Of a stretch of 54,656 nucleotides of DNA, positions 2,405 to 11,209 are shown one piece after another. This stretch comes from a virus. Lineage: Duplodnaviria; Caudoviricetes. The notes beneath the pieces are model-generated. The model did no database searches, was not told the origin of the DNA, and saw only the letters and a program-made list of their open reading frames with translations. The stretch is taken from the IMG/VR virus record IMGVR_UViG_3300037518_000672, positions 1 through 54,656 of that record. The stretch is one strand, 5' to 3'. Made by a program: the position numbers and the translations under genes. The first letter of the stretch is position 1. Each line of letters starts with the position of its first letter.

Positions 2405-3899
2405 GCGCCGCCGCCGGCAACAGACCAAAACCTCCCTCGCCGAACTCTACCGGGCTGACCCGGAGGGCTACGCCCGGGACGTTTTAGGGGTCACCTGGTG
2501 GGCCAAACAAATCGAGGTAGCCCGGCTACTCCTGACCCCGCCCTACCGGGTGCTAGTCAAGGCGAGCCACAAGATCGGCAAAACCCACCTCGGCGGCGGC
2601 CTGGTCAACTGGTGGTACGACGTTCACGATCCGGGGCTAACCCTGACCACGGCCCCCAACGTCAGGCAGGTCAAGGATCTACTCTGGAAAGAAGTCCGGG
2701 TTCAGCGCGGCGGTCGCGGTGGCTTTCCCGGCCCGAAGGCGGCCCGGCTAGAAAGCAGCCCGGATCATTTCGCCCACGGCTTCACGGCCCGCGACGGCGA
2801 AAGTTTTCAGGGCAATCACGGCCCGCACGTTTTTATCATCTTCGACGAGGCCGTGGGGGTCGACTCGATATTTTGGGAAACGGCCGAGTCGATGTTCAGC
2901 GGTGAGGGCCACGCCTGGCTGGCTATTTTCAACCCGACCGACACCAGCTCCCAGGCCTATGCCGAGGAGTTGAGCGGCGGTTGGCACTCGGTGACGATCT
3001 CGGCCCTGGAGCATCCCAACATCATCGCCGAGCTGAAGGGCGAGCCGCCGCCGTTCCCGGCCGCCATGCGGCTGGCCAGGGTCGAGTATCTGCTCGGCAA
3101 ATGGTGCCGGCCGGTCGAGGGCAAGCCCAAGGCCACCGACATCGAGTGGCCACCGGGCAGCGGCCAGTATTTGCGACCGGGGCCAATTGCGGAGGCCCGG
3201 CTGCTGGGCCGGTGGCCCTCGCAGGCCACCTACAACGTCTGGAGCGATGCGGTCTGGAGCGAGGCCGAGCTACTGCTCCTGCCGGAGCCGAAAGACAAGC
3301 CGTGCGAGATCGGCTGCGACGTGGCGAGATTTGGCGACGACTTCACCACGATCCACGTTCGGCGCGGCCCGGTCTCGCTGCACCACGAGAGCGTCAATGG
3401 CCGGTCCACCAGCGGGACCGCCGGCCGGCTAAAACAGGTGGCCGACCAGTGGGGCCGGCACTGCGGCCTCGACGGCAAGCGGCTCCTGGTCAAAGTGGAC
3501 GATGACGGCGTTGGCGGCGGGGTGACCGACCAGCGGGGCGATTACAATTTTGTGCCCGTCTCCGGAGCCGGCACCGCGATGGAGCCGGAGGATTATCCCA
3601 ATCGCCGCAGCGAGCTCTGGTTCGCCGTGGCCGAACGGGCCGAGGAGGGCCGCTTGAGCCTGGTCCGGCTGCCAGCAGAGGTACGGCGCGAATTGCGCCG
3701 GCAGGCGATGGCCCCGGTCTGGAAAGTCGATAGCGAGGGCCGGCGGGTGGTCGAGCCAAAAGAGGCCACCAAGAAACGCCTCAAGCGCTCGCCAGACGAC
3801 CTGGACGCCCTAAACCTGGCCTACGCGCCGCCTGGCCACGCGGTTCAAATCCTGGAACATTACCGGCGCAGAGCCGAAGGAACAAAAACCGATGCCTGA
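2367..3899 (+). CDS. terL: Terminase large subunit
   Basis: Walker A-like ASHKIGKT, Walker B IIFDEA, FNP coupling motif, RNase H-like IGCDVARFGDD and SPDDLDAL. Confidence 0.93.
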   Translation: MSFYQQRAAAERERRRRQQTKTSLAELYRADPEGYARDVLGVTWWAKQIEVARLLLTPPYRVLVKASHKIGKTHLGGGLVNWWYDVHDPGLTLTTAPNVRQVKDLLWKEVRVQRGGRGGFPGPKAARLESSPDHFAHGFTARDGESFQGNHGPHVFIIFDEAVGVDSIFWETAESMFSGEGHAWLAIFNPTDTSSQAYAEELSGGWHSVTISALEHPNIIAELKGEPPPFPAAMRLARVEYLLGKWCRPVEGKPKATDIEWPPGSGQYLRPGPIAEARLLGRWPSQATYNVWSDAVWSEAELLLLPEPKDKPCEIGCDVARFGDDFTTIHVRRGPVSLHHESVNGRSTSGTAGRLKQVADQWGRHCGLDGKRLLVKVDDDGVGGGVTDQRGDYNFVPVSGAGTAMEPEDYPNRRSELWFAVAERAEEGRLSLVRLPAEVRRELRRQAMAPVWKVDSEGRRVVEPKEATKKRLKRSPDDLDALNLAYAPPGHAVQILEHYRRRAEGTKTDA

Positions 3900-5811
3900 C
3901 ATTCCCCGAGGTACCACCGTCATAGATCTCCGCGAGGGAGCCAAACGCATCAGCGGGGCCTGGAACGCCCTGCTGGGCCGCCGCTTTGGCCCAGGCCTGC
4001 CCCTCTCGCCCACCACCGGCCAGGAGGAGCAGACCCAGGGACCCCGCCAGTATCAATACCCGGTCGGGGTCAACACCAACTTCATCCCTCGCCGAGACGG
4101 GACCGCCGGCACGCTGACCCCCTTTGAGCAGCTGCGCAACCTGGCCGCGCTCTACGACGTGGCCGCCATGTGCATCGCCACCCGGATCGAGGAGATGCAG
4201 GGCCTGGAGTGGGCGGTGGTGCCTAAAGACAAAAAACGCCAGGAGGAGTTGCAAGACGAGTGTGACGCGGCCACCGATTTTATGCAGCAGCCGGACAAGC
4301 TCAACAAATTCGATGCCTGGCTGGGCATGCTCTTGTACGACCTGTTCAGCATCGACGCCCCGAGCATCTACAAGCGGCTCGACCGGGCCGGTCGGCTGCA
4401 CGCCCTGGAGATCATCGATGGCTCGACGATCAAACCGCTCCTTGATGAGCGGGGCCGGGCGGTGGCCTACCAGCAAATCCTGTACGGCTCACCGGCCAGC
4501 CAATACCGGCGCGAGGGCACCGACGCCCCGGATGAGGAGCTGCCGATCTACGCTCCCCACGAGCTGATCTATCGACCTCGCTGGACCCGCACCTTTACCC
4601 CCTACGGTTTCCCGCCGACCGAGTGGATCATCCTCCGGGTCAACACCGCCTTGCGCAAGCAGGCGTTTGACCTGGCCTATTTCACCGACGGCAACATCCC
4701 CGATATGATCGCCACCCCGCCGGGCGACGCCAAAAACGGCGGCAACCTCAGCCCGGAGCAGGTCGAGCAATTCGAGGAATGGTTTAACGCCATGCTCGAA
4801 GGCAACGACGCGGCCCGGCGCAAGGTCCGGTTTTTGCCCTGGAACATGAACATGAAGGAGTTGCGGCCGTTTAACTATGAGACGATCCTAGACGAGTGGA
4901 TGCTACGGGTCACCTGCGCCGCCTACAGCGTACCGCCCCAGGAACTCGGCTTCACCAACGACGTCAACAAAGGGACCGCCGAGTTGCAGGAGGCCGTCAA
5001 CCAGCGCAAGGGCTTGAAGCCCTTGGCCAATTGGCTCAAGAAAAACTTCTTTAACGATTTTATCCAGCAAGACCTGGCCGCGGCCTGGGGGCCGGGCCGA
5101 CCCGACCAGGCCCTCAGCCTGCCCGGCCAACCGACCCGACCCCCGACCAACCCCTTCAAGCTGGTCGAGTGGGGCTGGCAATTCGGCGATGACGACGACA
5201 AACAAACCCAGGCGGCCACCGACCAGATCTACCACGCCATCGGGGCCGTCTCGGCCAACGAGATCCGGGTGATGCGCTTTGGCGATATCCTCGACGGCGA
5301 CGGACCAGGCGCGCTGGGCATAACCACAACCACGCCGGCCCCGGAGGAGCCAACCCCTCATCAGGTTCGGGATGCAACCCCTGAGCCGGCAGACGCGCCA
5401 CCGGCCGAAGACGCGGTTCAGCCCGCGCCGCCGGTCGCCGCTCGGCCGCCAGAGGTCGACTCCCGGCTGGCTCTCAACGGCGCTCAGGTGCAGGCCGCCC
5501 TGGACATTATGACCCAGGTGCAGGCCGGCCAGTTGGGCTATGAGGCGGCCCGAAATGCCCTCCAGATTTTCTTCAATCTCAGCCCGGAGCAGGCCGAGCG
5601 ATTATTAGCGGCGGGGGCCGACGGCCTGACGGTGACCGAGAAGCTGGCCAAGGCCAGCACTGCCAACGGGCTGGGAGACGACGATCCACTGATCGCGGTC
5701 AAAGGCGAGCAGGCCGAGGCCCTGAAGGGGAAGCTGCTGGAGTATTTCGGCGGGTTGCAGCAGCGGATCGAGAGCGATCCGCCCCGCTCAGGGGGCGACA
5801 ATGCCACCTGA
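3892..5811 (+). CDS. Portal protein with C-terminal extension
   Basis: Follows terL; portal-like motifs (IDGSTIKP, YGFPPTE, YFTDGNIP, AAYSVPPQELG). Confidence 0.88.
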   Translation: MPDIPRGTTVIDLREGAKRISGAWNALLGRRFGPGLPLSPTTGQEEQTQGPRQYQYPVGVNTNFIPRRDGTAGTLTPFEQLRNLAALYDVAAMCIATRIEEMQGLEWAVVPKDKKRQEELQDECDAATDFMQQPDKLNKFDAWLGMLLYDLFSIDAPSIYKRLDRAGRLHALEIIDGSTIKPLLDERGRAVAYQQILYGSPASQYRREGTDAPDEELPIYAPHELIYRPRWTRTFTPYGFPPTEWIILRVNTALRKQAFDLAYFTDGNIPDMIATPPGDAKNGGNLSPEQVEQFEEWFNAMLEGNDAARRKVRFLPWNMNMKELRPFNYETILDEWMLRVTCAAYSVPPQELGFTNDVNKGTAELQEAVNQRKGLKPLANWLKKNFFNDFIQQDLAAAWGPGRPDQALSLPGQPTRPPTNPFKLVEWGWQFGDDDDKQTQAATDQIYHAIGAVSANEIRVMRFGDILDGDGPGALGITTTTPAPEEPTPHQVRDATPEPADAPPAEDAVQPAPPVAARPPEVDSRLALNGAQVQAALDIMTQVQAGQLGYEAARNALQIFFNLSPEQAERLLAAGADGLTVTEKLAKASTANGLGDDDPLIAVKGEQAEALKGKLLEYFGGLQQRIESDPPRSGGDNAT

Positions 5812-6439
5812 TTTTTGGGAGCGAGAGCGAGAGCGACTGCTCGAATTACTGTTCCCGGAGTTGGCGGAGCTGGCCCGGGCCGGGGTCGAGGCCGCGGCCG
5901 AGAAGATCGAGGCGGTGGCCCAGGCGGCTGCGGCCGGCTTCAACCCTACTCTGAGCCACCGGGCCGCGGCCGCCTGGGCCAGAGGGCGGGCCACCGAGCT
6001 GGTCGAGCTGCTCGACGAGACTACTACCAAATCGGTCAACAGTCTCCTGGCTCGCTGGATCGAAACACCCGGCTCGCAACTGGGCGACCTGGTGGAGGAG
6101 CTGACCCCGATCCTGAGCGGCAACGTGGCCCGGGCCGAGCTGATCGCCACCACCGAAACGACCACCGCCTACGCCGAGGGGGAGGCCATCGTCTACCGCG
6201 AGGCCGGGATCCCGGAGCCGGTCTTCAAGCCGGCGGCGCACCCGCGCTGCCGCTGTTGGACCAGTGTACAGCGGGTTCAGGGAAAATTCGTGGTAGTCTG
6301 GCAAACCAACCGCGACGAGCTGGTCTGCGAGGAGCCGATCCAAACGCCCTGGGGCGTCGTCGAGGGCTGCAAAGAGTTGCACACGATGGTCATCTCCGAG
6401 GGGGAGTGGCTGGGCCGGAAGGTGGCCTCACTTGGCTGA
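5801..6439 (+). CDS. Minor head morphogenesis protein (MuF/SPP1 gp7-like)
   Basis: RAELIATTET and AHPRCRC motifs; follows the portal gene. Confidence 0.8.
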   Translation: MPPDFWERERERLLELLFPELAELARAGVEAAAEKIEAVAQAAAAGFNPTLSHRAAAAWARGRATELVELLDETTTKSVNSLLARWIETPGSQLGDLVEELTPILSGNVARAELIATTETTTAYAEGEAIVYREAGIPEPVFKPAAHPRCRCWTSVQRVQGKFVVVWQTNRDELVCEEPIQTPWGVVEGCKELHTMVISEGEWLGRKVASLG

Positions 6440-6935
6440 GATAGACATCAAGGGCCTCCAAGAGTTTGTTGCGGCCATCCAGCGATCGCCGGAGACGGCG
6501 GCGCCGGTCCTGAAAGAGGCCATCGAGCGGGCCCTGCTGCTGGTGGAGGGCGTAGTCAAACAGTACCCGCCGCAGCCGGCCCGGGACCGGGCCAAAACTT
6601 TCAACACCTACGTCCGGGGCCGGGGACATTACCCGCTCTCCGCGTTCAACAGAGGGGGAAAACTCAAACGCGGAGCCAAGCGAGACCCCACCATTCGGCT
6701 GACCTCGGAGCGACTGGGCACGAAATGGACCCACCAGGTCGATTTCGACCAGACCGGGGCTGTCGGCGAGATTGGCAACACGACCAGCTACGCCGACGAG
6801 GTGCAGGGGGAAGGCCAGGCCGATTTTCACGCCGAGACCGGCTGGCCCACCCTGCCGGCCGCGATGGACCAGCAGGAGCAGAATATTTATGACATTTTGG
6901 AGTTGGCCCTGAATGAGATCTTAAAAAAATTATAG
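6432..6935 (+). CDS. Virion morphogenesis protein (HK97 gp10-like)
   Basis: IDIKGLQEF N-terminus and IGNTTSYA motif. Confidence 0.55.
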   Translation: MAEIDIKGLQEFVAAIQRSPETAAPVLKEAIERALLLVEGVVKQYPPQPARDRAKTFNTYVRGRGHYPLSAFNRGGKLKRGAKRDPTIRLTSERLGTKWTHQVDFDQTGAVGEIGNTTSYADEVQGEGQADFHAETGWPTLPAAMDQQEQNIYDILELALNEILKKL

Positions 6936-6953
6936 ATTAGCCAGGAGGAAAAA

Positions 6954-7136
6954 ATGATTAACGAGTTACTGGAAAGTAAAAAGTTTTGGATGATGGTGGT
7001 CGGGCTGGTGATTATCGCCACCAATCGCTACGGGTTGGAGCTGGACGCCGACCAACTCTTCGGCGTAGCCCTGACCATCGTGGGCTACTTGACCGGCCAG
7101 GGCCTGGCCGATTTCAGCAAAGAGAAGCAGCCGTAG
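6954..7136 (+). CDS. Small two-TM protein (holin-like)
   Basis: SKKFW-hydrophobic...GQGLADF; strong AGGAGG RBS. Confidence 0.6.
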   Translation: MINELLESKKFWMMVVGLVIIATNRYGLELDADQLFGVALTIVGYLTGQGLADFSKEKQP

Positions 7137-7148
7137 CGGAGGCTAAAT

Positions 7149-7697
7149 ATGCAATCATACGAACCAATGAACGTACTCCCGAATGAATTTCAGCGGGACT
7201 GGCAAGCGGAGTTGCGGCCGGCGGAGGACCACCCGGCCGGGGTGTTTCGGCTGGTGGCGATCAGACGAACGGAGGGCGGAGGCTTCGAGGGGCAGCGGGT
7301 GACGGTGCTGCTGCTCGATGAGGATGGGCAGGCGCTGCCGAGCGTGCCGGTAGCCTTCAGCTATTCCACGGCCCGGCAGTATATTGTGGGGCCAGAGTTC
7401 ACCTGGCGGCCACCCACGCCCCGCCGGGCCGATGTGTTTGCAACCCAGGGCGGGGGACAGATCGACCACGTCCAAGGCAGCGTGGTCAAGGCCGGTCAAC
7501 CAGGTGGGATCACGGCGTATGTGTTATCGCCGCTGTACGCCAGCGATGTGGTTAGCGGGCTGGGCATGCTGGCCGACCACTCTGGCGTTCACCTGACCTT
7601 CCAGTTGCGGCGGGTGGGGGTGGTGCCGCTGGGGGAGCGCCTGGCCAGCATCGAGGCGCGGCTGGCGGCGCTGGAAGCGGGGGGCAACCCCGCGTAG
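7149..7697 (+). CDS. Hypothetical protein (beta-rich, C-terminal coiled coil)
   Basis: GGAGG RBS; follows the holin-like gene. Confidence 0.65.
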   Translation: MQSYEPMNVLPNEFQRDWQAELRPAEDHPAGVFRLVAIRRTEGGGFEGQRVTVLLLDEDGQALPSVPVAFSYSTARQYIVGPEFTWRPPTPRRADVFATQGGGQIDHVQGSVVKAGQPGGITAYVLSPLYASDVVSGLGMLADHSGVHLTFQLRRVGVVPLGERLASIEARLAALEAGGNPA

Positions 7698-7700
7698 ATT

Positions 7701-7892
7701 TTACCTTCGCCTTGGGTCCCTCGGCGCTCTTCCTTCGTTGCGGGATTTGTAGTCTTCCAGGCTGGCCGGGTCAATCATCCAGGCCGGGCCAAACTTCTCC
7801 GCCTTGATTGAGCCGCGCTTGATCAGGCGAATGATCGTGAATGAGTTAACGCCTAAAAAATCTGCGGCCTGCTGCCTTGTCATTGGTTTCAA
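7701..7892 (-). CDS. Excisionase-like HTH (HTH_17/MerR-like) DNA-binding protein
   Basis: MTRQQAADFLGVNSFTIIRLIKRGSIKAEKFG.W.I; GGAGG 7 nt before TTG 7892 (alternative ATG 7883). Confidence 0.8.
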   Translation of the reverse strand: MKPMTRQQAADFLGVNSFTIIRLIKRGSIKAEKFGPAWMIDPASLEDYKSRNEGRAPRDPRRR

Positions 7893-7904
7893 GATTACCC
7901 CTCC

Positions 7905-8072
7905 CTCCTGACCCACGCGCTCCCCTAACCCACGAGCGCGTGGGGTGAACGACTGCCCCGGCTTTTTAATTTTGAGGAAACCCCCCTGACCCACGCGCTT
8001 GTGGGGCGAACGCCAGGAGGAAAGAAATGGTAAACGAACTATTCCCCTGACCCACGCGCTTGTGGGGCGAAC
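7905..8072 (-). CRISPR. Mini CRISPR-like array: three 29-nt repeats, two 32-nt spacers and a truncated terminal repeat
   Basis: Identical repeats GTTCGCCCCACAAGCGCGTGGGTCAGGGG (- strand) at 8044-8072 and 7983-8011; degenerate copy at 7922-7950; 17-nt remnant at 7905-7921; spacers at 8012-8043 and 7951-7982. Confidence 0.88.
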
Positions 8073-8176
8073 CCCAAACCACGAAGTTCACATTTTCCTG
8101 CTTCATCGCCCCGCTAATGCTAAAGGCTCCACAGGCGTTTAGTTACTCTCCGCCCAGGTAGTACGGCGAGTTTTAT
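8073..8176 (-). ncRNA. TnpB omega-RNA (reRNA) scaffold, possibly acting as tracrRNA
   Basis: Directly 3' of the tnpB stop; contains GCCTGTGGAG (8136-8127) and GATGAAGCAGGAA (8107-8095), typical of tnpB-downstream RNAs; boundaries approximate. Confidence 0.7.
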
Positions 8177-9337
8177 TCATCCTTCCCCTAAAATCCTCAG
8201 CGCTTCATCCCGAATGTTGAGCGCCGCGTTGCCGTCTCTATGGTTGATTGTTCCGCAGCCTTCGCAGGGCCATTCGCGGTCGGATAGCTTCAAGTCGGCT
8301 TTAATCCAACCGCAAACGTTGCACGCTTTTGAAGAACAAAACCACTGGCCAACCGGAACAACTATGCCGCCATTCCAGGCCGCCTTGTACTCCAATTGTC
8401 TACGCTTCTCAAACATCGCCGCATCACTCACCGCTTTTGCCAGGTGGCGATTTTTCACCATCCCTTTAACATTCAAGGTTTCAACCCCGATAATCCCGTA
8501 ATCTCTGGCGATTTGGGTGGTCATTTGGTGACTGGCCTCATCGCGGATACAAGCTATTTTATAATGCAGCTTGGCTATTTTTTCCTTCATCTTGAGCCAG
8601 TTCTTTCCACCCTTCTCCATTCGGGCAAAAGAACGTTGTAGCCGTCTTAGCTTGCGCTTCATCTGCTCAGTAGCTTTTGGGTTCTCAAAAATTTGGCCGT
8701 CGCTGGTCACGGCGAGATACTTAACCCCAAGATCAACCCCTACCGCTTCGTCATTGTGGCCCGGTACCTCCTGCTTGACCTCGACCTGCACCGATAGCCA
8801 CCAATGCCCGGCCCGGTAGACGATACGCCCGCCCATCACCTTGCCGTCAAAGCGGAGCGGTTCGGCCATATTGACCCAACCAACGCGGGCCTTGTCAAAC
8901 CAAAATTGGCTATCACTGAAATGCATAATCGCATTGTGTATATAAAATGCCGGGGTTGATTTGTGGCGGCTCTTGAAACGAGGCCAGCCGAACGGCTTGC
9001 CGTCTTTTCGAGGCTTCCAACCGGCAGGCGGCTTTAGCAATCCCTTTTTGTGCTTGTTAAAGAAATTCCTAAATGATTTTTCCAGATCATCAAAAGCCCC
9101 CACCATTGCCCACGACGTAACCTCAGATGCCCAAGGGAATTGCTCCGCTTTGATCGCGTTAAACTCTTCTCTAAGCAGTCGCCCGCTTACCTTTTCTTTT
9201 GCCTCTAACCGGCGGTTATATTCGGCCAAGCCCCAGTTGAAGCAAAATCTAGCGACGCCAGCTGCCCGCCAAAAATAGGCGGCTTGTTCCGGCGTTGGGT
9301 TCAGCCTTATCTTATGAGCTTTAATCACTGTATCCAT
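8177..9337 (-). CDS. tnpB: RNA-guided nuclease TnpB (Cas12f-like), 386 aa, catalytically intact
   Basis: HKIRLNPTPEQ N-terminus; RuvC D (VGVDLG), E (GVETL), D (HRDGNAALNI); CxxC...CxxC Zn finger; ATG 9337 lies 7 nt after a -10 box. Confidence 0.93.
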   Translation of the reverse strand: MDTVIKAHKIRLNPTPEQAAYFWRAAGVARFCFNWGLAEYNRRLEAKEKVSGRLLREEFNAIKAEQFPWASEVTSWAMVGAFDDLEKSFRNFFNKHKKGLLKPPAGWKPRKDGKPFGWPRFKSRHKSTPAFYIHNAIMHFSDSQFWFDKARVGWVNMAEPLRFDGKVMGGRIVYRAGHWWLSVQVEVKQEVPGHNDEAVGVDLGVKYLAVTSDGQIFENPKATEQMKRKLRRLQRSFARMEKGGKNWLKMKEKIAKLHYKIACIRDEASHQMTTQIARDYGIIGVETLNVKGMVKNRHLAKAVSDAAMFEKRRQLEYKAAWNGGIVVPVGQWFCSSKACNVCGWIKADLKLSDREWPCEGCGTINHRDGNAALNIRDEALRILGEG

Positions 9338-9344
9338 AAATCGA

Positions 9345-9373
9345 ATTGTACTACAAAAAATAAGACTTGCCAA
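9345..9373 (-). promoter_or_regulatory. Sigma70-like promoter for a leaderless tnpB transcript
   Basis: TTGGCA-17 nt-TACAAT; ATG 7 nt downstream and no RBS. Confidence 0.7.
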
Positions 9374-9505: not shown

Positions 9506-9557
9506 GCCCGACAGAGCGCGAGCCGGGGCAGTCTTTTTGAGACCGCCCCGGCTTTTT
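9506..9557 (+). terminator. Leader terminator with conserved upstream motif (putative antitermination switch 1)
   Basis: GCCCGACAGAG..CCGGGGCAGTC; hairpin 9521-9553 followed by a T-run. Confidence 0.6.
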
Positions 9558-9574
9558 GATTTTGAGGAAAACCG

Positions 9575-11209
9575 ATGCCAGACCAACTGACCCCAGGTGC
9601 GACCGCCTGGATTGGCTTTTTTCTACCACCCGAGGTGGCCCAGCCGTTGGCCCTGGCCGGCGGCGAGCCGGCCAGCGAGCTACATCTGACTCTGGCCTTC
9701 TTGGGAGATGCCGACAAATTAGATCTGGACCGGCTGAAGGAGGGCCTGGCCCTGTGGGGCAAGAACCAAATCCCCATCAGTGGTCGGATCAGCGGGGTGG
9801 GCCGTTTCAACGAAACCGGCGAGGAGGGCCAGCACGCCTTTTATGCCTCGGTCGATGCGCCCGGCCTGGCCCGTTTCCGACAAAATCTGGTCAACGAGCT
9901 AGACTGGCTCGACTGCCCGGCCGACCGAACTCACGGCTACACCCCCCACATTACCCTGCAATACCTCCCGGCCGGCGATCCCTCGCCGCTAACCAGCCTG
10001 GAGCGGATTTTCGAGGTCGAGCTCGACACAATGACCCTGGTCATCAGCGAGCCACCTGTCGCCGACAGCGACCGGCGCGAGCTGCGCCGGATCGAGTACC
10101 AACTGACCGGCGGCCCGGTCGAGAAAACGCAGGCGGCCGGCTTCGGCGTGAGCGCTCAGTCGAACGGCCAGTGGACCCGCTTTGCCAAGATCGACAGCCT
10201 CGACGCCGAAGAGCGAATGATCTACGGCGTCGCCGCGACCGAGGAACCCGACGATCAGGCGGGGGTCTGGGAAGGCCGGAAATACGAGGGCGATATCGTG
10301 ACCATCGAGGCCATCGAGGAGGCCCTGCCCGACTATCTGAAATGGGCCAACATCCGGGAGATGCACCAGCCCTCGGCTGTGGGCACGACCCTGGAGACCG
10401 AGATCAAGGACCGTAAGCTCCACATCGGGGTCAGGATCGTGGACGGGCCGGCCTGGGAAAAAGTGAAAGAAAAGGTCTACCGCGGCTTCTCGGTCGGCGG
10501 CCAGGTCCTCAAGGCCAAACTAGTGGAGATCGGCGGCAAAATCTACCGCAAGATCTTAAAACTCAAACTCTATGAAATTTCATTGGTGGATCGGCCCGCG
10601 AATGGCGGCTCCGAAATTTTACTATTCAAGCTCTCTACGGAGGAAACGATGGCAACAGACAACAAAGACAAAAAGCCCGCGGCGGCCAACTCGGACGGCG
10701 GGGCCGGCGACAAAGCGGCCCAGGCCCTCACCATGCTCCAGGAACTGCGCGACGAATGCGAGCGCAGCGGGGATATGGCCGGGGCCGGCAAGTACGGCCG
10801 GGCCATTGCCTTGATGATCGGCGAGGCCGAGGGGTCGATAGCGGCCGGCGAAGGCGTGGAAGACGACGAAGTGCAACTGAGCCAAAAGAGCGGCGACCTG
10901 CAAAAGGCCATCAAGCCCGCTTTGGACGGCCTGGCTAAGGCCATTCAAGACGGCCTGGCCGAGCAATTCAAGACGCTCGATGAGCGGCTGGCCAATATCG
11001 AGGCCCAACCGGCCGCCGGCGGCCCCAGCCTGCGCCAGGCCGAGAAGCCTGCGCCGGGCCAGCAAAAACCGGCCCGCCAGGATCCCGCCTTCACCAAAGG
11101 GCAACTGGGCGACCTCAAGCAAAAGGCATCGACGGAGCCGAACCCGGCCCTGCGGGCTCAGTACCAGCAGCAGTACATCCACATTCTGGAATCAGCGGTC
11201 GCCGCCTAA
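9575..11209 (+). CDS. 2H phosphoesterase domain fused to prohead protease and scaffold region
   Basis: HLTL and HITL motifs in the first ~160 aa; IREMH, YRGFSVGG, EISLVDRPAN protease motifs; acidic helical C-terminus; precedes the capsid gene. Confidence 0.85.
   Translation: MPDQLTPGATAWIGFFLPPEVAQPLALAGGEPASELHLTLAFLGDADKLDLDRLKEGLALWGKNQIPISGRISGVGRFNETGEEGQHAFYASVDAPGLARFRQNLVNELDWLDCPADRTHGYTPHITLQYLPAGDPSPLTSLERIFEVELDTMTLVISEPPVADSDRRELRRIEYQLTGGPVEKTQAAGFGVSAQSNGQWTRFAKIDSLDAEERMIYGVAATEEPDDQAGVWEGRKYEGDIVTIEAIEEALPDYLKWANIREMHQPSAVGTTLETEIKDRKLHIGVRIVDGPAWEKVKEKVYRGFSVGGQVLKAKLVEIGGKIYRKILKLKLYEISLVDRPANGGSEILLFKLSTEETMATDNKDKKPAAANSDGGAGDKAAQALTMLQELRDECERSGDMAGAGKYGRAIALMIGEAEGSIAAGEGVEDDEVQLSQKSGDLQKAIKPALDGLAKAIQDGLAEQFKTLDERLANIEAQPAAGGPSLRQAEKPAPGQQKPARQDPAFTKGQLGDLKQKASTEPNPALRAQYQQQYIHILESAVAA

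Follow-up and report, generated by a model that had tools for sequence, protein, structure and literature searches.

The viral genome IMGVR_UViG_3300037518_000672 (Duplodnaviria; Caudoviricetes) carries on its minus strand a tnpB gene that is followed, after about 104 nucleotides (nt) of non-coding DNA, by a short CRISPR array whose repeats resemble those of type I-E. The window, as we call the whole stretch of DNA analysed here, comprises an entire IMG/VR virus record (54,656 bp), which bears direct terminal repeats, and its positions 8044-8176 form the junction of the TnpB guide-RNA scaffold with the mini-array. On balance, we lean towards reading this locus as a phage-borne hybrid of TnpB nuclease and CRISPR array, in which the scaffold is welded to the I-E-like repeat 1 and TnpB uses the guides of the array. 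TnpB and mini-array constitute a real and, as far as can be judged from sequence, probably functional module.

TnpB, its guide-RNA scaffold and the mini-array

The window TnpB (Table 1) contains the Pfam domains OrfB_IS605, Cas12f1-like_TNB and HTH_OrfB_IS605, and guided_TnpB is the sole NCBIfam model that it matches above cut-off (280.7 against a cut-off of 100). Models of named Cas12 subtypes stayed below theirs (C2c8, 83.5 against 350; Cas12f2, 37.9 against 450), which leaves the protein outside the named type V Cas12 subtypes as far as curated models define them. ISDra2 TnpB (8h1j/8exa) aligned over its full length (E 1e-56), and the match to LaTranC was confined to the C-terminal RuvC part (E 7e-27). 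In the alignment with 8bf8 and 8h1j, residues D203, E287 and D369 stand opposite the catalytic residues of ISDra2 TnpB, which we take to be D191, E278 and D361. By its motifs the nuclease is predicted to be catalytically intact.

At the protein level, the catalytic triad, the zinc-finger insertion, the size and the OrfB_IS605 domains place it among the TnpB/OMEGA RNA-guided nucleases. It does not form a mobile element of the IS200/IS605/IS607 kind: the phage encodes neither a Y1 nor a serine TnpA, tnpB is present in a single copy, and only part of the omegaRNA is found. Transposon ends were likewise not recognised at the TnpB locus of the window. The conserved same-strand array downstream agrees with type V or TranC-like systems, and was seen in the window and L187, in about ten members of a second clade, in the L085 group and in L247 (L numbers denote the loci of TnpB relatives).

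The mini-array comprises three 29-nt repeats, one part-repeat and two 32-nt spacers. An earlier note on this DNA, made from the sequence alone, had pointed out a CCCAC/GTGGG hairpin in the repeat and a period of 61 nt, both of which are present. Its observation that degeneration rises with distance from tnpB was also borne out, from the identical repeats 1 and 2 through repeat 3 to the part-repeat, which is probably a deletion scar. By architecture (a 28-29-nt repeat, a stem-loop near the repeat's 3' end and spacers of 32-33 nt), the array belongs to type I-E. Gene content and repeat identity do not place it there so far as searched: the phage encodes no Cas1, and the exact repeat was absent from the species genomes and IMG/VR contigs screened.

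The canonical guide RNA of the array-less relatives consists, according to our alignment, of a first hairpin, a RAGATH-like core and a 3' module of 50-62 nt. In this module a stem encloses a hairpin and GAACGG forms the terminus; similarity ceases beyond it, where the guide would start. This layout agrees with the reRNA of ISFba1 as given in the available text on that element, with a 37-nt 5' flank, a 73-nt RAGATH-18 motif and a 64-nt 3' flank preceding the guide (PMC11061315). The corresponding core in the window stays below the gathering score of RAGATH-18 (29.8 bits against 44.9) and is hence called RAGATH-18-like; its outer stem and conserved loops match, and the inner part is shortened. 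A covariance comparison with array-less omegaRNAs, which the earlier note had recommended, was carried out with a model of 142 positions built from 12 such RNAs. The window matched it at positions 22-88 only (9.5 bits), and the 5' flank of the scaffold lay outside this match.

At 51 nt, linker and repeat 1 together fall within the length range of the canonical 3' module, which spans 50-62 nt among 15 array-less relatives. The window scaffold appears to keep the RAGATH-18-like core and to lack the usual 3' module, with linker and repeat 1 in the module's place, and therefore spacer 1 would lie at the guide position. In L187, the closest relative (51% identity), the 3' end of the model aligns weakly to the end of repeat 1 (10.2 bits). 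That scaffold, repeat 1 and spacer 1 form a natural single guide, as had been suggested, is plausible given the retained model positions and the fitting length of the linker-repeat segment. The same suggestion had repeat 1 following the scaffold directly, which needs correction: the core ends at 8095 and a 22-nt linker (8094..8073) that includes GTGAAC intervenes.

Recurrence in relatives and candidate linker-repeat pairing

The TnpBs closest to the window protein are 34-51% identical to it. A same-strand array lies within about 200 nt downstream of the gene in 24 of 241 TnpB loci, and visual inspection added two more, L228, whose repeats are degenerate, and L220, which is truncated after its first repeat. 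The I-E-like relatives (L187, L194, L197, L223, L238, L249, L255, L247, L236 and L085-088/154/224) have repeats of 28-30 nt with a CCCCAC...GTGGG-type hairpin and a period of 60-63 nt. Across the 14 arrays measured, 30 of the 32 internal spacers are 30-34 nt long. The repeat of L238 is identical to that of the window at 22 of 29 positions, including the first 12 and the hairpin.

In all array-bearing relatives examined, the array comes after the gene and shares its strand. In a FastTree phylogeny of 177 TnpBs, I-E-like arrays occur in at least four places (the window with L187, the clade of about ten members, the L085 group and L247), and the array-bearing rows require at least seven state changes. 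The window and L187 (support 97) are sister to array-less Caldilineales copies. Five neighbourhoods of the gene-array unit were found: one made up of head genes, one with an integrase alongside, one close to a terminase and an endonuclease V, one flanked by an integrase/excisionase pair and a dCTP deaminase, and one preceding DnaB. Two related phage variants (L085/L086) carry different spacer sets, and their spacers showed no match in each other's records beyond the arrays. When 185,579 species genomes were searched, no I-E-like array followed the gene in any of the best 80 loci for the window TnpB, nor in any of the best 80 for a clade-2 TnpB query.

The earlier note had proposed that two scaffold motifs pair with the repeat, GTGAAC with its first six nt (GTTCGC) and GGGGCGA with TCGCCCC. 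Both motifs are located on the minus strand where it had placed them, at 8091..8086 and 8112..8106, respectively. In the RNAfold prediction, the first pairing becomes part of a longer hairpin of 10 bp (GUGAACUUCG / UGGGGUUCGC, loop UGGUU) that spans the repeat 1 junction. In minus-sense RNA, which is the sense of tnpB, GUGAAC:GUUCGC includes a U-G pair, and plus-sense RNA has a C-A mismatch at that position; the note had assigned these two strands the other way round. The tnpB-sense orientation of the guide RNA is favoured because of this wobble, the minus-strand RAGATH-18 match and the same-strand layout of all array-bearing relatives examined.

Across 15 related loci, the stretch preceding repeat 1 shows complementarity to the initial 10-12 nt of the cognate repeat. 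Linkers paired with nt 1-12 of their own repeat at -10.09 kcal/mol versus -8.38 +/- 0.51 kcal/mol, with 16 of 20,000 permutations as low, and after two close relatives were dropped (13 loci) 25 of 20,000 reached as low a value. Neither control showed a cognate signal, that is, the 3' part of the repeat (2787/20,000) and the upstream scaffold (18,520/20,000). Windows over the repeat 1 junction also fold tighter than windows over internal repeats (-10.1 versus -6.8 kcal/mol, Mann-Whitney p 0.005), in a comparison of 14 with 32 junctions that are partly non-independent. The comparison across the family thus supports the GTGAAC:GTTCGC pairing as probably one case of a family trait. The pairing of GGGGCGA did not hold up, as the scaffold part concerned is without cognate signal, and the GGGGC of this motif takes part in the inner stem of the RAGATH-18 core.

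Some further features of the relatives were recorded. L190 (1522-1602) and L252 (1643-1720) have I-E-like repeats with spacers of merely 23 and 22 nt (periods 52 and 50), unlike the ruler of the I-E integrase. L085 and L087 lie in one IMG/VR record of 143,142 bp with two module copies near 63.7 kb and 137.5 kb, about 73.8 kb apart and with different spacers; the record resembles two related phage genomes in one contig (a concatemer or a chimeric assembly). A Bacteroidales/Prevotella group (L036, L038, L227, L229, L230 and L231) has repeats of about 36 nt with a period of 65-66 that are copies of the omegaRNA 3' end. This group is a clear case of an array made from a guide-RNA end and probably falls within a described TranC-type clade. 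In L271 (3565-3960; a Methylobacillus metagenome-assembled genome), tnpB tail and scaffold are tandemly duplicated about 200 nt apart. Clade-2 loci (L238, L194, L249, L197, L220 and others) show the first hairpin of the scaffold, then GGAUUG, then CCUGUGGAG; their repeats likewise end in a hairpin plus GGAUUG or GGUUUG, so that the motif is common to scaffold and repeats. A further possibility, that the repeat itself serves as the omegaRNA guide of an insertion sequence (IS) aimed at I-E arrays, was rejected because the distance from canonical scaffold end to repeat 1 varies between 9 and 68 nt. A GAAC/GUUC pseudoknot with strands exchanged between the scaffolds of array-less and array-bearing loci was also considered, by visual inspection, and set aside.

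Spacers, origin of the repeat and alternative explanations

Spacer 2 matches the phage's own genome at 9541-9572 (minus strand) with three mismatches (score 26 against 12.5 +/- 1.0 in shuffles). For spacer 1, the highest-scoring local match within the genome is at 6940-6964 (minus strand), with a score of 19 against 12.1 +/- 1.0 and a shuffle maximum of 16. No comparable own-genome match was found for the linker. Both look-alike sites are on the same strand and on opposite sides of the module, within about 0.8 kb of its edges. We posit that the spacers may be directed at close relatives of the phage, and viral mini-arrays with such spacers are a known pattern, as described in the available text of PMC11656645.

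The repeat was compared with the 3' modules of 15 array-less relatives and with the 3' regions of the sisters L003 and L188. Only one of these 17 comparisons reached p<0.05 against shuffled repeats. At the sequence level, the right ends of the homologs, which the earlier note had named among the grounds for refuting its proposal that the repeat is a duplicated omegaRNA 3' end, hence bear no significant similarity to the repeat, and the proposal is not supported. The window repeat agrees in 17 of its 18 core positions with a 16-repeat array (spacers of 31-34 nt) from an Anaerolineae genome, which encodes Cse1 elsewhere than at the array. The L187 repeat shares its first 11 nt with the last repeat of the Anaerolineae array. 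At the repeat end (the last 7-8 nt, the 5' handle in Cascade), the window reads UCAGGGG, and the closest genuine I-E repeat that was found reads UGAACUG. When the Anaerolineae array's 15 spacers were compared with the window, they yielded nothing beyond chance words.

Because there is no likeness to omegaRNA 3' ends and 17 of 18 core positions are shared with a true I-E array, the repeat was more likely captured from an I-E-type array than duplicated from the omegaRNA. The resemblance to type I-E that had been noted for repeat and period holds, and extends to the core match and to the spacer lengths of the relatives. According to the available text of PMC10691335, TnpB gave rise to type V effectors on about 50 occasions, the array being downstream, and Altae-Tran et al. 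(2023) left undecided whether such arrays stem from omegaRNA duplication or from landing beside an existing array. The window and the relative loci argue that the latter route does occur.

In the hybrid that we favour, tnpB, scaffold and mini-array would probably be transcribed together from tnpB's own promoter. The linker GUGAAC(UUCG) would fold back on the start of repeat 1, with the repeat hairpin and a G-rich tail following, and scaffold, repeat 1 and spacer 1 would together serve as a natural single guide. Repeat-spacer units farther along would be usable only via linker pairing in trans, or after a unit has been lost by repeat recombination. A type I-E-type array is the most likely source from which the repeats were captured, and new spacers would probably be added by the I-E Cas1-Cas2 of the host. 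Such a supply, already suggested by the earlier note, is plausible: the phage encodes no Cas1, related phages carry different spacers, and Cas12r offers a precedent, as described below. The spacers would aim at close relatives on both sides of the module, with the carrier's own copies bearing mismatches, and the likely role would be competition between related phages.

A number of observations weigh against this hybrid. In the window alone, neither pairing is above chance. Complementary 6-mers (G-U allowed) between the 143-nt scaffold and the repeat number 11 against 9.7 +/- 3.9, a value that 40% of 300 shuffles reach; Watson-Crick 7-mers number 1 against 0.22 expected (reached by 16% of shuffles), and pairs crossing the repeat 1 junction 6 against 5.2 (reached by 49%). 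The fold of the whole region is also indistinguishable from shuffles (z-score 0.17). In the family test, the reversed repeat still gives 801 of 20,000, and base composition therefore contributes part of the signal. Merely 6 bp are on hand for the pairing of repeat 2 in trans. The larger clades keep a complete canonical scaffold, with a full-length model match in 12 array-bearing loci and repeat 1 beginning 9-68 nt past the canonical end; the single-guide geometry is therefore not family-wide and is limited to the window and, weakly, L187. The phylogeny is a FastTree with long branches that leaves the number of independent origins unsure.

Searches for hosts and targets point in the same direction. 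A search for the exact window repeat, with the loop left free, gave no hit among 185,579 species genomes or among the IMG/VR contigs. Exact protospacers for spacers 1 and 2, and for a relaxed core of spacer 2, were absent from viral contigs, and therefore no target- or protospacer-adjacent motif (TAM/PAM) is readable. Searching GenBank phages by blastn with the window array gave no match, likewise with the arrays of three relatives. The 5' flanks of the two own-genome look-alike sites share no motif.

Gene and array might alternatively be separate neighbours, with an ordinary viral mini-array that the host's I-E Cascade uses against related phages, and TnpB being an unrelated insertion or a mere source of transcription. 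Repeat length, hairpin and spacer size all suit Cascade, host-type mini-arrays against relatives are well known (as PMC11656645 describes in its available text), and both spacers resemble the phage's own genome. With the omegaRNA complete in the larger clades, TnpB would there have no need of the array. Two spacers mapping near each other on one strand would also fit primed type I-E adaptation. We nevertheless consider this arrangement rather unlikely, since the gene-array pair is constant in order and strand in at least four TnpB lineages and five neighbourhoods, and, over the family, linkers show complementarity to their own repeats. Moreover, the canonical 3' module is lost in the window, and therefore TnpB would have no complete guide RNA without repeat 1. 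The differing Cascade handle and the absence of the exact repeat from the species genomes speak against it as well.

The flanking position of the look-alike sites also allows for an RNA-guided homing cassette, a phage 'gene drive', which we regard as unlikely. Here, the spacers would target both sides of the insertion site in related phages that are free of the module, with the spacer 2 site directly at the upstream edge and the spacer 1 site about 0.7 kb past the downstream edge, and the carrier's own sites would be shielded by mismatches. A double cut in a co-infecting relative would force repair from the carrier, by which TnpB, the array and the genes between would be copied. By a rough post-hoc estimate for a genome of 54.7 kb, the odds that both best matches fall within about 0.8 kb of the module's edges, one on either side, are about 5 in 10,000. 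The same pattern could equally result from adaptation that was primed or stimulated by a nearby cut. If true, a homing cassette would extend the known homing role of TnpB in transposon retention to a programmable, host-adapted form.

That the repeat is a duplicated omegaRNA 3' end, the array having arisen de novo in the manner of TranC and its I-E look being convergent, is in our judgement decidedly improbable. The Bacteroidales/Prevotella loci do have a 36-nt repeat that is visibly the omegaRNA 3' end, the repeats close with a G-rich tail after a hairpin that loosely resembles the GAACGG tail of canonical omegaRNAs, and the linker hairpin of L085 (CCACAGCGCGTGGG) closely resembles the window repeat. 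These points are opposed by the non-significant likeness to the 17 3' ends, the core shared with a long array in a Cse1-encoding genome, the L187 repeat start that recurs in the Anaerolineae array, and the fit of the 29-nt repeat and 32-nt spacer to the I-E pattern. Least probable, and indeed very doubtful, is self-regulation, in which CRISPR RNAs (crRNAs) antisense to the ribosome-binding site (RBS) and start regions of the phage's own plus-strand genes at 6954 and 9575 would time late genes. They would act by imperfect pairing, either with TnpB bound but not cutting or simply as antisense RNA. Both look-alike sites span ribosome-binding and start regions of plus-strand genes and both spacers are antisense to them. 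Yet TnpB retains its RuvC triad, spacer 1 agrees with its site at only about 26 of 32 positions with a gap, and the varied spacers of the relatives have no look-alikes in the flanks examined or in their own records.

Genomic setting and relation to known systems

The minus-strand block (promoter-like site, tnpB, scaffold, array and HTH_17 gene) is nested among plus-strand head genes (Table 1). Its GC content is 47-56%, against about 65% in the surroundings, and neither TnpB nor the HTH gene lies between portal and protease in any of 24 distant relative phage loci. Therefore, the TnpB-array module is an insertion. These 24 loci share at most 52% amino-acid identity, and no close phage relative was found via the protease. 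On the minus strand, no terminator-like site was found from tnpB to the HTH gene, which is not conserved beside the arrays of the relatives in the neighbourhoods compared. Contigs from four sediment DNA runs contained the same module, with zero spacer variants and zero contigs bridging an empty site, the uncovered parts being uninformative.

Table 1. Features of the tnpB-array locus and its surroundings, with positions in the window.
Feature	Position	Strand	Remarks
Portal	3892-5811	+	
Head-morphogenesis-like gene	5801-6439	+	
Spacer 1 look-alike site	6940..6972	-	26/32 positions with one gap (hand count); spans RBS and start codon of gene 6954-7136 (+)
Small gene	6954-7136	+	
HTH_17 (excisionase/MerR-like) gene	7701..7883	-	60 aa; Pfam, PHROG 66; directly 3' of array, same strand
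Part-repeat	7903..7921	-	Abuts repeat 3; 15 nt identical to repeat 1 positions 13-27
Repeat 3	7922..7950	-	Degenerate; 5/29 positions differ
Spacer 2	7951..7982	-	32 nt
Repeat 2	7983..8011	-	Identical to repeat 1
Spacer 1	8012..8043	-	32 nt
Repeat 1	8044..8072	-	GTTCGCCCCACAAGCGCGTGGGTCAGGGG; 29 nt, type I-E-like
Linker	8073..8094	-	AAUGUGAACUUCGUGGUUUGGG; 22 nt; its GUGAACUUCG would pair with UGGG and the first 6 nt of repeat 1; candidate anti-repeat
RAGATH-18-like core of omegaRNA/reRNA scaffold	8095..8135	-	CCUGUGGAG...GAUGAAGCAGGAA; Rfam RF03064, 29.8 bits, E 0.007
Scaffold 5' flank	8136..8215	-	Overlaps tnpB stop codon; hairpin CGCC...GCGG (alignment, fold)
tnpB	8177..9340	-	387 aa, single copy in phage; RuvC triad D203/E287/D369 and two CxxC pairs intact
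Sigma-70-like promoter	9345..9373	-	TTGGCA-17-TACAAT; 10/12 consensus positions, consensus match only; directly 5' of tnpB start
Spacer 2 look-alike site	9541..9572	-	Half of terminator and RBS before gene 9575-11209 (+); beside upstream edge of module
LigT-prohead protease gene	9575-11209	+	Pfam

The gene at 9575-11209 is one open reading frame of 544 aa, with a 2'-5' RNA ligase/LigT-like domain at the N-terminus and a prohead serine protease domain after it (Pfam), and its nearest relatives match from residues ~190-210 onward only, that is, the protease portion. Just 5' of it, and 1.8 kb from the preceding plus-strand gene, lies a strong hairpin with a T-run (9521-9556, plus strand). It may be the former terminator of that preceding gene, cut off from it by the insertion; the preceding gene also has a terminator-like site of its own (7677-7693). 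In the probable source run, and in this run only, low-depth contigs (2.3-4.1 against about 12) at 6428-6583, 6756-6923, 7080-7214 and 10839-10978 differ from the phage at about 5-12% of positions, and a related phage variant is therefore present in the same sample. Among the divergent contigs listed, beyond which there are 391 further pieces, none covers the spacer look-alike sites.

The kind of system to which the window belongs is already known from TranC and Cas12r. The window locus differs in its unenlarged TnpB, the RAGATH-like scaffold that is kept, and the putative welding of repeat 1 into this scaffold. Our literature search found no account of that combination or of its recurrence across TnpB lineages; the primary TranC paper and its supplements were outside this search and may catalogue the lineage.

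TranC are described, in the available text of bioRxiv 10.64898/2026.03.27.714800, as transposon-CRISPR intermediates with repeats of 32-38 nt and one phage-borne member, CauTranC9. The window shares with them the TnpB-sized effector and the downstream array, and the TranC guide is an omegaRNA/reRNA split into tracr-like and cr-like parts. Compared by description, it departs from them in its 29-nt, I-E-like repeats. Its own features in this comparison are that the complementarity involves the repeat's 5' end and that a covalent link joins repeat 1 to the scaffold.

Cas12r of the Thermus Lalka phages is, according to the available text of Trofimova et al. (bioRxiv 10.64898/2026.04.20.719267), a TnpB-derived nuclease of 564 aa that uses crRNA alone, recognises an ARG PAM and was shown to interfere with its target. 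The phage has no adaptation genes, and adaptation by the host's I-E system was proposed by its authors. As in Cas12r, the window has a phage TnpB-derived nuclease followed on the same strand by a short array with 29-bp, partly degenerate repeats (Cas12r spacers, 31-33 nt). Both repeats have type I-E elements, which the Cas12r repeat shares with the host's I-E repeat, and the Cas12r spacers are described as directed against other mobile elements. As far as description allows a comparison, the window differs in its TnpB of 387 aa, the alignment over the length of ISDra2 and the scaffold of about 104 nt, in contrast to 564 aa and 15 bp from gene to repeat in Cas12r. An array similar to the host's I-E repeat has also been reported for a myxophage Cas12m, in the available text of 10.64898/2026.09.14.751636.

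With TnpBs of the IS607/IS605 type (ISFba1, PMC11061315, as far as its available text goes; ISDra2, 8EXA/8H1J), the window has size, domains, motifs and a RAGATH-18-like core downstream in common. Unlike these, it has no TnpA and a single copy, the 3' flanking module is apparently replaced by linker and repeat, and an array follows. Virus-borne mini-arrays that use host Cas proteins, as presented in the available text of PMC11656645, resemble it in having two spacers, a host-type repeat architecture and spacers similar to relatives of the carrier. They differ from the window array in that the latter is tied to its own nuclease gene, and its repeat ends deviate from the nearest I-E repeat found.

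If TnpB loads these guides, it would be among the smallest natural CRISPR-type effectors (387 aa), with a ready-made single-guide RNA, and the family would represent compact nucleases that may have non-T-rich PAMs. The locus would then show a transposon guide RNA at the stage of its fusion with a repeat taken over from a different CRISPR type. That the arrangement recurs in several TnpB lineages points to a general phage route to type V systems, in which a host-type array is taken and fed by host Cas1-Cas2 and the phage keeps its own nuclease.

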